A stretch of DNA of 36,320 bases from IMG/VR virus record IMGVR_UViG_3300011335_000335, positions 1 through 36,320 of that record. One strand, written 5' to 3'. The notes beneath the pieces were generated by a model, which did no database searches, was not told where the DNA came from, and saw nothing but the letters and a program-made list of their open reading frames with translations. Numbering within the stretch: the first letter of the stretch is position 1; each line of letters begins with the position of its first letter. A program made the position numbers and the translations under genes. Below are positions 2,792-33,156 of this stretch, one piece after another. This DNA is from a virus. Lineage: Duplodnaviria > Caudoviricetes.

Positions 2792-2797
2792 TATTTA
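2792..2797 (-). promoter_or_regulatory. T4-late-like promoter box cTAAATA upstream of the nozzle gene
   Basis: Same motif as in front of most structural genes; lies just downstream of a terminator hairpin. Confidence 0.7.
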
Positions 2798-2808
2798 GTG
2801 CCAAAGGT

Positions 2809-2839
2809 AAAGCCCCAGGCGCTGACAGCCTGGGGGCTT
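2809..2839 (-). terminator. Intrinsic terminator ending the early region
   Basis: AAGCCCCAGGC / GCCTGGGGGCTT GC-rich stem followed by T-rich sequence on the minus strand. Confidence 0.7.
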
Positions 2840-2859
2840 GTACAGTTACTTCAGATAAC

Positions 2860-3072
2860 TTACGCTACAAACTCCCAGCACCATCCTGTTTGTACTGTGG
2901 CACCTGTGTATTCAGGTTGGTCTTTAAATGGTGCCCATCTTGGAAACTTTTGTTGCCTAATGTCCCGTCTAATGCCACCTAACTTGGCCTTTGCATTTGC
3001 TTCTGTTGTGTTAACAAATACCTCTACGGTGGGCATGTGTTTAAGATAAACACGGATTGTCTTTGCTGTCAT
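2860..3072 (-). CDS. Hypothetical early protein (70 aa)
   Basis: ORF with AAGGA RBS, its own sigma70 promoter and a downstream terminator. Confidence 0.8.
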   Translation of the reverse strand: MTAKTIRVYLKHMPTVEVFVNTTEANAKAKLGGIRRDIRQQKFPRWAPFKDQPEYTGATVQTGWCWEFVA

Positions 3073-3116
3073 AATAGTCCTTAAATGTATAGCACTGATC
3101 TTTGCGCTATGCTGTT

Positions 3117-3145
3117 ATTATAACACAATCATAACGAAAAGTCTA
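3117..3145 (-). promoter_or_regulatory. Sigma70-type early promoter
   Basis: TAGACT-17 bp-TATAAT on the minus strand. Confidence 0.8.
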
Positions 3146-3192
3146 CAGCGTGTTTATCCATTTTAAGATTTGATAGAAATCAAGTGTGGCAG

Positions 3193-29834: not shown

Positions 29835-29844
29835 GGTTGCGTCC

Positions 29845-30825
29845 TTAATGTAATGTTGGCAACTTACTGTAGTTTACAGTATAGTAGCCTGATGCGTTTG
29901 ACATAACTGCATCAGCATGTTTTGTCTTTAATAGTTCCTGTGCCATTACACCAACTTGTGGCTTGTCATCATAGCGATAGTTGTATGAATATACTTTGAT
30001 ACCATCAACTGTCTTAATGTGCTTGATATTTTCTTTTAGTCTTTCATCACTGAACAAACCAGCAATGCCAGCAACACCGCCAGCAAGATCCCATAGTTGC
30101 ATACCTGTATCAAATGCACTATCAGACTTGTTTTGTGTTGTACTTTGTTGACTTGGGTATGGAGCAGTATATGCGCCTGCTGGAACACCATACATGTCGC
30201 GAGCAAACATACTTGCGCTTTGATACGGAAGTTGTGCAGCCTGTACGCCCGTTTGTGCGTTGCGTACTGCTTGATCCATTGCGTTTAAACCTGTGCCTGT
30301 CATGTATTGACCAACATTTTGTCGTTGACCTTCAATCTGTGCCATCAAGTTTGCGGCTGTGTTAAATTGATTGGCTTCGTTTTGTCCAGCAAGTTGTTGT
30401 CCTGCTAAGGCTTGACGAGCACTACCTAAGTTTCCAGCGCCGCCAAAGTTGGCTGCTTGGTTAGCAAGGTTAGTTTGATACTGTGCTTGTCCTGGAGCAA
30501 GTGCGGCTCTTAATTGCATCTGTGCGTATTCTGGACTGAACAAGTTTGATAAGCCTTGTGAACCCATACGAGCCATGCCCTCACCTATTCCGCCTTGTGT
30601 CTCTTGTGCTTGTCCAGCAACGCCAGCAAGATTTTGTCCTGCTCGTAACACGCCTTCTCTACTGCCTGCATATTGATTGCCTAACTCGTCCATGACATTC
30701 TTGAACTGTGGCAATACTGTACCATGACGGAAGTCATTGGTTCTGTTAATGTCTTCTATTTGTTGTGGTAGATAGTTAACTTGACTTGTTGTCTCGCTAC
30801 CAAATATGTCTCCGAATAAACTCAT
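29845..30825 (-). CDS. DNA transfer / ejection protein with C-terminal peptidase S74 (intramolecular chaperone) domain
   Basis: Q/A/G-rich body; FSDERLKENI...GVMAQEL...YYTVNYSKL. Confidence 0.85.
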   Translation of the reverse strand: MSLFGDIFGSETTSQVNYLPQQIEDINRTNDFRHGTVLPQFKNVMDELGNQYAGSREGVLRAGQNLAGVAGQAQETQGGIGEGMARMGSQGLSNLFSPEYAQMQLRAALAPGQAQYQTNLANQAANFGGAGNLGSARQALAGQQLAGQNEANQFNTAANLMAQIEGQRQNVGQYMTGTGLNAMDQAVRNAQTGVQAAQLPYQSASMFARDMYGVPAGAYTAPYPSQQSTTQNKSDSAFDTGMQLWDLAGGVAGIAGLFSDERLKENIKHIKTVDGIKVYSYNYRYDDKPQVGVMAQELLKTKHADAVMSNASGYYTVNYSKLPTLH

Positions 30826-30848
30826 ATTATAGTTTCCTTATCATTGGT

Positions 30849-30854
30849 TATTTA
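30849..30854 (-). promoter_or_regulatory. T4-late-like promoter box upstream of the ejection genes
   Basis: gTAAATA in a 31-bp intergenic gap. Confidence 0.7.
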
Positions 30855-30856
30855 CC

Positions 30857-32152
30857 TTACGGTACCATCCCACCTTGTTGTGCGTTTCTAATCAACGCAT
30901 TTAATTGTTCCTGTGTCATACCTTGTAGTTGATTAGGATTGAATCCAGCAATAGGTGCTGGGCCCCCACCTATCTGAGGACCGCCAGGCATAGGAGCACC
31001 AGGTTGTGACTGTCGCTGTGCCTGTGGTCTTTGTTGATTAAAGCCTGGTGTTACACCTGGTTGGAATGCTCCAGGCTGGCTTAGTGCATTAATCATTTGT
31101 TCTGTTGTTAATGGCTGTGCCATCTGACTTTGTCCAAACCCTGCTTGTGGTGCACCAGGAACTGTGTTCCAACTTTGTGCATTGAATGTAGGACCTTCCT
31201 GGAAAGGATGTGAACCCCAATAGTACTTGGCTTGTCCAGCGCCTGCATTGGTGTAAAATGGTGTTGTTTCAATTAGACCAGGATTTAATCCTTTGCCTTT
31301 ACCAACCCAAGGTGTAGGAGTTACTGGGTAAGTTGGTGGAGGAGTTACTACTCCATCGCCCCCGCCTCCGCCTCCATCACCGCCACCACCTCCATCGCCT
31401 CCTCCTCCGTCACCATCATCAGAGTCATCAGCATCATCGTCAGAGTCATCTGCATCATCAGCATCATCGTCAGAGTCATCTGCATCATCTGCATCATCGT
31501 CAGAATCATCAGCATCATCTGCGTCGTCAGCATCATCTGCGTCAGCATCATCTGCGTCAGCATCATCTGCATCTGCATCTGCGTCAGCATCATCTGCATC
31601 TGCATCTGCGTCAGCATCAGCATCAGCATCTGCATCACTGTCAGAGTCCGCATCACTGTCAGAGTCCGCATCGCCTGTATCACCAGTATCACCAGTATCA
31701 CCTGTATCACCAGTATCACCTGTATCACCAGTATCACCAGTATCACCTGTATCACCAGTGTCGCCAGCATCTGCGGCTCCGTCTGCACCATCTGCTCCGT
31801 CTGCGCCATCACCTGCGCCATCACCTGCGCCATCACCTGCACCATCTCCCGCGCCACCGTCACCTGCTCCGCCATCGCCGCCACCGCCATCGCCGCCACC
31901 GCCGTCTCCACCACCTCCATCTCCCCCGCCACCATCGCCACCACCATCACCATCAAATTGTGGCAAGCCAGTGTCAGGATTAATAGCGCCAGAACCGCCG
32001 CGGGCTTTTAGTACAGCAGCCTCTTCTGGATTAATGTGGGCCAAGATGGTATCATCACCGTGACCACGGTTTCGTAGCACATTGGCTAATCGTGCTAAGT
32101 CTTCATCAGTCAGTGTGCTGAAGTCTATGTGTTTGGAGTTTTTCTTTTTCAT
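30857..32152 (-). CDS. Putative virion protein with a roughly 200-aa Asp-rich repeat tract (431 aa, start MKKKNSK)
   Basis: TAATG-coupled, AAAGGA RBS; N-terminal [35 protein letters not shown] motif recalled from podovirus tail/ejection modules. Confidence 0.8.
31352..31955 (-). repeat. Coding minisatellite array ([35 protein letters not shown] blocks)
   Basis: Tandem units such as GTATCACCA/GTATCACCT, GCATCT and GCATCACTGTCAGAGTCC are directly visible. Confidence 0.95.
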
Positions 32153-33156
32153 TATTGTCCTTTGAACTTGGCTTTGAGAAGGGGATATTTCTTTAAGCAC
32201 TTTTGGTCGCTGAGATTGGCCGCTTCTATGGCGCATAAACTATTTAGTTCATTCTGGGTCAGCGTCAGTGACTTGCCATCATTGGTTGCTACTGAGGTTG
32301 TGTTTGTCTTTAATGCTGTTTCTAATGCTGAAGGGCGACGAATATCGCGAAACAATTCTACCAATTTGGTTGCTGGTTCGCCTATGATTCGAACCACAAT
32401 GTCTCTGTGCTCAGAACCCAGGGTGGCTGTTTTAAATGCATTGGTTCCAAAGATACTGTGTAAGCCACCTGCTCCACATGTTTCTGAATCATATCCTGCT
32501 GCCTTTAAGATGTCATACACATTCAGCAAGTGTGTCATTAAGTTACGACCTGAATGTTTAATCTTGTCTGCATTGACTGCTGTGAGTGCTCGTTGTATGT
32601 TGTCACGCTGTACATCACAGTTGCGAGGTGCAAACTTAAACATCAGAGTTATTCGCTGTGCTGGGCATACGCGAGTTACTGATCTTGCTTGATGCACTTT
32701 GGTACCAGGAAAGATAAGTCCACGATTGTATTTGGGCAACTCAGCATGTACAATAGTGTCATCTTCATATACTGTGGTTTCACCGCCCCACTCACGCCGC
32801 CATTCCGGGTTCATGTAAATCACAATGGTGTAATCTGAATCACGCTTGCTATCTGTATGAGGATAACCTTCTACACCATAAGTGTGGCTGTTGGTATAAC
32901 AGCGCAGTAGTGTTTGGTCGCCCAGGTAATTTACTTTGAGATGATTCCAAGCACGCAAGATTGGTTCAGGTAAGTTGGCACTGATATCTAAACCGTTCTC
33001 TGCTGAACCTTTTGCAAAACTGTGATTCCAATGTGTAAATTCAAAACTACGATTACTGGCCCATCCATACCGCCATGGTACTGAGTCAATATGTTCACTT
33101 ACACTCCGAAGTAAGTCTTCGGGAAATACTTGTGCTATCTGATTAATGCTGTTCAT
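32152..33156 (-). CDS. 2OG-Fe(II) oxygenase (prolyl-4-hydroxylase-like) fused to an HD-like (DUF6817-type) domain
   Basis: HTD...WGGET...H-QARSV...R-ITLMFK facial triad; C-terminal HSGRNLMTHL...GGLHSIFGT. Confidence 0.85.
   Translation of the reverse strand: MNSINQIAQVFPEDLLRSVSEHIDSVPWRYGWASNRSFEFTHWNHSFAKGSAENGLDISANLPEPILRAWNHLKVNYLGDQTLLRCYTNSHTYGVEGYPHTDSKRDSDYTIVIYMNPEWRREWGGETTVYEDDTIVHAELPKYNRGLIFPGTKVHQARSVTRVCPAQRITLMFKFAPRNCDVQRDNIQRALTAVNADKIKHSGRNLMTHLLNVYDILKAAGYDSETCGAGGLHSIFGTNAFKTATLGSEHRDIVVRIIGEPATKLVELFRDIRRPSALETALKTNTTSVATNDGKSLTLTQNELNSLCAIEAANLSDQKCLKKYPLLKAKFKGQ

Follow-up and report, generated by a model that had tools for sequence, protein, structure and literature searches.

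Late transcription of bacteriophage T4 initiates at promoters that consist of a lone −10-like element, from which gp55 alone is reported to direct basal transcription (PMC7892883). For the jumbo phage CBB, an ATAAATA motif in front of structural genes and a gp55-like sigma factor have been described, and the phage reportedly possesses neither gp33 nor gp45 (PMC5259590). Here we analyze the TAAATA boxes of a podovirus genome from IMG/VR (record IMGVR_UViG_3300011335_000335, positions 1 to 36,320); this whole stretch of 36,320 nucleotides is referred to as the window. As far as the published accounts describe the T4 late and CBB promoters, the boxes of the window resemble them in that a −10-like element with the same six-base core and without a −35 element stands before virion genes (PMC7892883, PMC5259590). 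They differ from T4 late promoters in their core, which is TAAATA with a free 5' flank and not TATAAATA, and in their setting, a 36-kb podovirus in which no gp55 is encoded. The TAAATA box is conserved and its placement is well beyond chance. We consider it probable (about 0.65) that the window belongs to a clade of helper-dependent, virophage-like podoviruses that borrow the late sigma factor of a jumbo phage related to PA5oct and Atu_ph07, and probably its lysis functions as well.

The late genes of the satellite P4 respond to the Ogr protein of its helper P2. Activation of PLE is described as depending on the transcriptional progress of the helper (PMC13595925), and I55, an integrated island packaged by its helper, has been introduced as the first jumbo-phage satellite (PMC12772148). 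With P4, PICI, cf-PICI, PLE and I55, as these are portrayed, the clade would share an expression tied to the programme of a helper, and many of its members carry Prim-Pol/helicase replicons (PMC12772148, PMC13595925). Unlike those elements, which integrate and borrow a capsid, a tail or both, the clade yielded no integrase match and encodes a whole virion. To call it the reverse of P4, PICI and PLE, as the preliminary description of this DNA had done, is an overstatement, since MiniFlayer, the satellite of MindFlayer in Streptomyces, is already reported to have its own capsid and tail (PMC10690885). The window resembles MiniFlayer, according to the same account, in these virion genes, in the lack of an integrase and of a recognized replicase, and possibly in a codon usage that leans to helper tRNAs, which here is a single clade contrast against a candidate class of helper (PMC10690885). 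The dependence of MiniFlayer is reported to concern replication, whereas here it would concern late transcription and lysis (PMC10690885); the present clade also differs in that 10 of its 21 members have a Prim-Pol and in that helper attachment is not part of the picture. Like the window, the virophage Sputnik is described as having its own virion genes under the late promoter motif of its giant helper (PMC11998528). This likeness is an analogy only: unlike virophages (Maveriviricetes), the clade has a bacterial host, an HK97-type tailed virion with SU10-type capsid, portal and terminase, and bacterial promoters, and host RNA polymerase with a borrowed sigma factor is proposed to take the place of Sputnik's viral factory.

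Ten minus-strand TAAATA sites had been listed beforehand, and all ten are found on this coding strand at the coordinates given; an eleventh minus-strand copy at 4675 and one plus-strand copy at 15221 bring the number to 12. A shuffled sequence would contain 19.3 copies on average, and 11 of the 12 are on the coding strand, so the signal lies in position and strand and not in abundance. For nine of the 11 minus-strand boxes, a start codon follows at a distance of 3-50 nt (p 3e-10 when compared with the zone fraction; p 1.6e-6 when compared with 147 hexamers of the same composition), as judged from 42 curated starts, three of which are off by a few bases, none of them among the nine boxes counted. 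The described placement upstream of genes is thereby borne out, as are the preference for cTAAATA (8 of 11 boxes) and the position of two boxes behind terminators, with hairpins preceding those at 2792 (2813-2835) and 15256 (about 15269-15296). Short gaps directly before structural genes, as had also been proposed, accommodate most sites; those at 24113 and 32241 lie inside upstream genes and are weaker. The individual elements are as follows.

2792-2797, minus strand: putative late box at the head of the virion module; the terminator ends 15 nt ahead of it, and the tail gene starts 27 nt beyond it, at 2764
2813-2835, minus strand: intrinsic terminator-like hairpin (−20.2 kcal/mol), lying between the early region and the first box
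15256-15261, minus strand: TAAATA box, 5 nt before the ATG at 15250 and just past a hairpin 3' of the capsid gene
17729-17734, minus strand: TAAATA box upstream of the scaffold-like gene 16521-17684 and hence of the major capsid gene
20433-20438, minus strand: TAAATA box before the portal gene
23664-23669, minus strand: TAAATA box upstream of the gene 22814-23614 and of the terminase operon, with a hairpin (23638-23662) after the box
24113-24118, minus strand: doubtful TAAATA that falls within the last part of gene 24103-24384; a poorly conserved open reading frame (ORF) begins 13 nt further on
25250-25255, minus strand: TAAATA box, 5 nt before the ATG at 25244 of a 49-aa gene predicted to be leaderless
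25605-25610, minus strand: TAAATA box, 5 nt before the ATG at 25599 of a 116-aa gene predicted to be leaderless
30849-30854, minus strand: TAAATA box before the DNA-ejection protein genes
32241-32246, minus strand: weaker TAAATA within the 2OG-oxygenase gene; a likely start follows 88 nt later, at 32152

The boxes at 15256, 25250 and 25605 are placed exactly 5 nt before an ATG that has no Shine-Dalgarno sequence, and the ATG at 15250 is predicted to be the true, leaderless start of a 194-aa gene. The 116-aa gene starting at 25599 we take, from its position and motif, to be possibly the small terminase. The early region has real sigma70 promoters, as the preliminary description stated, and those close to the consensus are confined to positions 3117-7377.

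3117-3145, minus strand: sigma70 early promoter, 10 of 12 consensus bases
4675-4708, minus strand: sigma70 promoter TTGACC-17-TATAAT (promoter 4708-4680), 11 of 12, whose −10 overlaps the eleventh TAAATA; possibly a dual early/late promoter
5093-5121, minus strand: sigma70 early promoter, full consensus (12 of 12)
7349-7377, minus strand: sigma70 early promoter, 11 of 12

Capsid relatives of the window amount to 563 loci in IMG/VR. We compared the window and 20 whole relatives (capsid identity 83-96%; G019 was left out, and G003 was used without its last 471 bases), referred to as the clade, with a sister set consisting of MW202484 and 8 of the 29 available IMG/VR genomes (capsid identity about 60%). 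In the terminase tree, the two groups fall on opposite sides of one branch with a support of 100, and genes of both were called with a simple purpose-made caller. TAAATA is the top upstream hexamer of the 21 clade genomes (13.5-fold enriched; 221 upstream and 89 coding copies), while it is unenriched (1.3-fold) in the nine sister genomes. Across 80 related loci and the window, its strand ratio (623 to 182) is the highest among 15 permutations of its letters. All six bases matter, since the exact hexamer reaches 11.9%, compared to at most 2.2% for the 18 single-base variants.

The box is preserved gene by gene. It stands before the orthologues of the tail gene (window box 2792) in 20/20 clade and 1/9 sister genomes, of the portal gene (20433) in 19/20 and 0/9, of the ejection gene (30849) in 20/20 and 1/9, of gene 22814-23614 (23664) in 15/20 and 0/9, and of the 49-aa gene (25250) in 14/16 and 0/6; for the 194-aa (15256) and 116-aa (25605) genes, the clade figures are 19/19 and 19/20. 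The scaffold-like gene (17729) has it in 4/20 clade genomes, with a box one gene further upstream in 13/21, and boxes of their own are seldom found at the terminase (0/20) and capsid (3/20) genes. At the weak sites, the gene after 24113 has a box in 0/1 relatives and the gene after 32241 in 6/10. A gene in the opposite orientation (family 11) is preceded by the box, read on the strand of that gene, in 18/18 clade and 0/8 sister genomes, which excludes an artefact of stop codons; of the 245 near-start clade boxes, only 49 overlap a stop codon, and 183 fall between genes without forming part of one.

The distance from box to ATG peaks at 5 nt in the clade (59 of 496 boxes, and 83 at 4-6 nt, vs 3 of 249 in the sister set), and a second, broad peak at 19-25 nt leaves room for leaders with a Shine-Dalgarno sequence. 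A −35-like word accompanies only 14 of the 245 near-start boxes, and the flanks contain no second motif. The T4 octamer TATAAATA is absent from the window, and TA precedes only 22 of the 245 clade boxes. The T4 late box spans positions −13 to −6 relative to the start site; were transcription to start at the ATG itself, the 5-nt boxes would cover −11 to −6 and coincide with the final six bases of that element. The RNA run that was consulted is made up of contigs. The TAAATA box is likely a −10-only late promoter.

The uncultured host might itself provide the reader of such a box, either as one of its sigma factors or as sigma70 acting on a bare −10 element, and no second phage would then be needed. 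The identity of the host leaves room for this explanation: GTDB matches are limited to two short contigs of metagenome-assembled genomes (MAGs), 3.2 kb in a MAG assigned to Actinomycetota (96%, with phage genes alone) and 22 kb in one assigned to Dechloromonas (61%), and neither of these names the host. Leaderless starts, moreover, are common in some bacterial phyla. We nevertheless regard reading by the host alone as very improbable. The boxes have no −35 element, and TAAATA fits neither register of the sigma70 −10, which has A at −11 together with T at −7; early genes of the same genome use canonical sigma70 promoters, the sister clade does without the box, and we know of no bacterial sigma factor with a TAAATA consensus.

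The virion module behind these boxes belongs to a complete genome, as had been proposed: positions 1-765 are repeated at 35556-36320 with 739 of 765 bases identical, which gives a circle of 35,555 bp. The 96.6% identity of this end repeat reflects mismatches clustered in its first 420 bases, some of which change amino acids; likely, two strains were merged during assembly. Contigs from two riverine runs cover the window at ≥99%, in many pieces. All called genes of the window are on the minus strand and co-oriented on the circle, and Pfam and PHROGs identified a large terminase, an SU10-type portal, an SU10-type major capsid protein, and ejection and tail proteins among its 43 ORFs. No polymerase, primase, helicase, integrase, sigma factor or endolysin was recognized in this set.

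13454-22311, minus strand: head and packaging module with large terminase, SU10-type portal, scaffold-like gene, SU10-type major capsid and head-tail proteins
26146-36255, minus strand: ejection and tail module, with a PHROG ejection match
9155-13444, minus strand: tail-fibre-like protein of 1429 aa, assigned by sequence and position
8866-9153, minus strand: holin-like gene (phrog_689, E 1.7e-6), with no endolysin adjoining it or elsewhere in the window genome

The tail gene starts at 2764 and crosses the circular junction to 34090 (about 1,409 aa). The tail-fibre-like protein has weak similarity to a large protein of the jumbo genome G055.

The sister genomes share with the clade, in identical order, orthologous genes for terminase, portal, scaffold, capsid (about 60% identity), tail and ejection; they differ from the clade in lacking TAAATA boxes and in possessing a divergent, lambda-like early module and an endolysin. 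This early module comprises Sak (9/9), RusA (5/9), an initiator, SSB and Cro. In a scan of one representative per accessory family of 65-600 aa (154 proteins) and of the window, none of these families occurred in the clade, and an endolysin was found in 1/21 clade genomes (one M15 peptidase), compared to 7/9 sister genomes. There was no integrase match in the 43 window ORFs or the 154 representatives, and no integrated clade copy was seen in GTDB. Annotated genes of the more distant relative MW202710 include a lysozyme as well as SSB and nin-type genes, so that an autonomous layout appears to be the ancestral one. We give even odds to the evolutionary scenario in which a large and abundant freshwater clade, descended from an autonomous lambda-like podovirus, dropped its late control and its endolysin, had each of its virion operons rewired to the late promoter of PA5oct/Atu_ph07-type jumbo phages, and is now their obligate hyperparasite with its own tailed virion, much as virophages are in eukaryotes. 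Replication modules vary within the clade: relatives switch between Prim-Pol plus DUF5906, VapE-like or DUF3987 helicases (L170:9212-11810, L171:4210-5586 and L184:2721-4295, all minus strand) and modules that, like that of the window, have no recognizable gene.

These phages could instead be facultative parasites that complete a slow cycle through read-through or antitermination from the sigma70 promoters, the boxes boosting late genes during co-infection with a jumbo phage. The co-orientation of all window genes, the overlap of the box at 4675 with a sigma70 −10, the high abundance (563 loci) and the relatives' own Prim-Pol (10/21) would suit such a life style. It is set against the strong terminator ahead of the first late box and the near absence of endolysins; furthermore, genes of the leaderless type, lacking a Shine-Dalgarno sequence, would be translated poorly from read-through RNA. 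We hold a facultative cycle to be decidedly unlikely.

Is a reader of the boxes encoded in the clade? The 43 window ORFs gave no Pfam or PHROGs match to gp55, gp33, gp45 or RNA polymerase, in agreement with the preliminary description. Since NCBIfam missed even the gp55-like protein of a jumbo phage, family libraries alone are weak for this search. When 30 genomes were translated in six frames, two gp55 profiles (T4-type and jumbo-type) found no significant match in the resulting 8,846 segments (lowest E value in the clade, 0.13), while PA5oct, as positive control, was recovered at 1e-32 and 1e-100. Likewise, hhalign comparison of 17 clade families with gp55 stayed below 0.5% (control 98%). 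The three ORFs singled out earlier as possible sigma-like factors or activators all fail by distribution and profiles: none resembles gp55, 8128-8823 and 5905-6558 are each present in 3/21 clade genomes, and 22814-23614 occurs in 9/9 box-less sister genomes as well. There is no universal early family among the 21 clade genomes; the families common to all of them reside in the late module, behind boxes.

8128-8823, minus strand: 231-aa protein with C-terminal helix-turn-helix repeats (3/21 genomes), the best remaining candidate for a regulator of the phage's own

A gp55-like sigma factor is encoded by PA5oct, Atu_ph07, Phosso and the jumbo genomes G054 and G055. The ranking of upstream hexamers is led by TAAATA in G054 (233 kb; 19.6-fold) as well as in the complete genome of G055 (355 kb; 19.7-fold), and the box-to-ATG distance peaks at 5 nt (16/214 and 22/223), as in the clade. 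The jumbo box is equally strict about its bases (exact TAAATA 5.2% vs at most 0.7% for single-base variants), and upstream enrichment is also seen in the first 240 kb of PA5oct (4.2-fold) and in G051 (4.7-fold). The proposal that late genes are read by the sigma factor of a T4-related helper is supported, on comparative evidence, as far as a T4-late-type promoter without an encoded reader is concerned, with jumbo phages related to PA5oct and Atu_ph07, and not T4 proper, as the likely helper class. The assistance by gp33 and gp45 that had been part of it is doubtful, as CBB is reported to lack both proteins (PMC5259590); a parasite could accordingly do without a clamp on its DNA.

Codon usage points in the same direction. 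For ten shared orthologues, and among genomes with a GC content at third codon positions of 0.30-0.40 (13 clade and six sister genomes), the clade is nearer to G054 (2.53) than the sister set (4.0), and the same holds for G055 (2.67 vs 3.61). The clade favours AGT/AGC, ACA, GCA, CCA and CTA codons, which G055 tRNAs would read. ARAGORN calls a tRNA with a CTA (amber) anticodon in G054 (C1:198835-198909). Relatives of the gp55 region of G054 were detected in runs X3 and X4, which hold the window (29/30 and 26/30 bins), but in run X1 only as short pieces (<95%; 10/30 bins); we do not count this co-occurrence as evidence, since such jumbo phages are very common (about 6,300 stretches). A Dps/ferritin-like gene at 25712-26146 (minus strand) is present in 21/21 clade genomes and has homologues in G054 and G055. 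Two early-region genes are shared with jumbo phages.

3908-4216, minus strand: 102-aa early protein homologous to a G054 protein (41% over 51 aa, E 4e-10)
7844-8128, minus strand: 94-aa beta-rich protein, not sigma-like, shared with gp55-like jumbo phages at about 40% identity

Among 50,697 phage records, the 94-aa protein matched only 15, all PA5oct-like, Atu_ph07, Phosso or SCTP-2 jumbo phages (34-41%). Its gene was found in 14/22 clade but 0/23 sister records, and in 10/17 IMG/VR records with a gp55-like sigma factor, most of these being fragments. The structural model consists of a beta-rich domain and one helix (predicted local distance difference test score, pLDDT, 94.8). PDB offered no sequence match and no Foldseek match at E≤0.001, and a likeness to Tic22 (best VIA Z 5.1, root-mean-square deviation 3.4 over 61 residues) is not meaningful; BFVD returned only two uncharacterized phage proteins and the ESM Atlas only hypothetical viral clusters. 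In the family tree, the phage copies form three groups that require 3-4 changes of label, and a single origin is also compatible with it; one row labelled as a podovirus (L243) may be a jumbo fragment. In 8/21 clade genomes, a 95-aa zinc-finger family (L171:3397-3705, minus strand, and relatives) replaces the 94-aa gene, and these genomes are scattered on the terminase tree. Since a TAAATA box lies upstream of the 94-aa gene in jumbo phages G054-G056 and of the zinc-finger gene in 5/7 cases, both genes look late-expressed. An AAA ATPase gene (L203:15412-16329, plus strand) follows the 94-aa gene in G021, and a MoxR-like ATPase lies two genes further on in jumbo phages G055 and G056. Directly after the 94-aa gene of the window is a tRNA-Gln(TTG) at 7765-7838 (minus strand), present in 3/21 clade genomes.

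A number of observations weigh against dependence on a jumbo helper. The 94-aa (13 genomes) and zinc-finger (8 genomes) families are mutually exclusive and together account for 21/21 clade genomes, which would look like the pattern expected of interchangeable activators of the phage's own; the jumbo-shared 94-aa gene is thus missing from 8/21 genomes, and the zinc-finger family is found on 0/44 contigs longer than 39 kb. A sigma factor might possibly be encoded that is too divergent for the gp55 profiles used. The base before the box is C (40%) or A (35%) in the clade, compared to A (47-71%) in three jumbo phages, so no matched helper has been identified; other T4-related phages with the same box possibly act as helper. 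The PA5oct transcriptome report presents TATAATA/TTGAC promoters only, with TAAATA not mentioned in that account. Finally, 563 loci without an integrase are demanding for an obligate co-infector, and the contrast between clade and sister is one evolutionary event, so the differences in codon usage and lysis may reflect a change of host or an A-rich coding strand.

Some of these points would fit an autonomous phage in which an unrecognized factor of its own (the 94-aa, zinc-finger or helix-turn-helix 8128-8823 protein) makes host RNA polymerase read TAAATA and an unrecognized enzyme lyses the cell. Besides the exclusivity of the two small families, this explanation can draw on weak helix-turn-helix matches of 8128-8823 to Q-like and late-activator PHROGs (E 0.003 and 0.007), on the many early ORFs without a family match, and on the holin-like gene kept in 12/21 genomes. 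Yet the confident beta-rich model of the 94-aa protein is unlike the helical sigma region 2, the 94-aa and zinc-finger genes themselves look late-expressed, no candidate resembles gp55 and 8128-8823 is confined to three genomes, and convergence on the six bases and the spacing of the jumbo phages would be needed. An own factor appears unlikely to us.

Under helper dependence, the infection would proceed as follows. The phage might meet its helper through persistence, superinfection or attachment. After entry, host sigma70 would transcribe the small early genes, and the terminator at 2813-2835 would halt this transcription, so that the virion module would stay silent until the late sigma factor of the helper appears. 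Host RNA polymerase carrying the gp55-like sigma factor of the helper would then read the TAAATA boxes, with transcripts beginning about 5 nt past each box, a position that for some genes is the ATG. Replication may be the phage's own, or partly so, in relatives with a Prim-Pol. The virion would be assembled from the phage's own head, tail and packaging genes, and the progeny would leave when the helper lyses the cell.

Several further features of the window were recorded. The gene at 30857-32152 (minus strand), just upstream of the ejection genes, encodes a protein in which Gly, Asp and Ala make up an extended repeat tract (about 31350-31960). A TylF-like methyltransferase (3273-3911, minus strand) and a 2OG-Fe(II) oxygenase fused to DUF6817 (32152-33156, minus strand) are both rare in the clade. 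Between the tRNA and an early promoter, about 450 non-coding bases (7305-7760) are 70-86% conserved in several relatives and are a candidate origin or non-coding RNA; an Rfam scan of 2700-9200 reported the tRNA alone and nothing for this segment. The tetramers CTAG, AGCT and ACGT have an observed/expected ratio of 0.0 in the whole window, and the clade shuns several four-base palindromes more than the jumbo phages do, which suggests exposure to host restriction.

Our literature search, which mostly did not reach subscription journals, turned up no account of the clade or of any phage that borrows gp55. Satellites are usually found through their integrases and missing virion genes, and a borrower of sigma factor and lysis with a full virion would pass as an ordinary lytic podovirus. 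If our reading is true, hundreds of IMG/VR records would belong to a clade that parasitizes jumbo phages unnoticed, which would explain the lack of plaque-assay isolates of such phages, and a late box without a reader together with a missing endolysin would provide a sequence-only rule to find more of them. Whether jumbo phages attract virophage-like parasites is called unclear in a review from 2026 (PMC13359090), and this question is made testable by the present clade. The window would also offer a small natural reporter for the late sigma factor of jumbo phages without T4 clamp activation.

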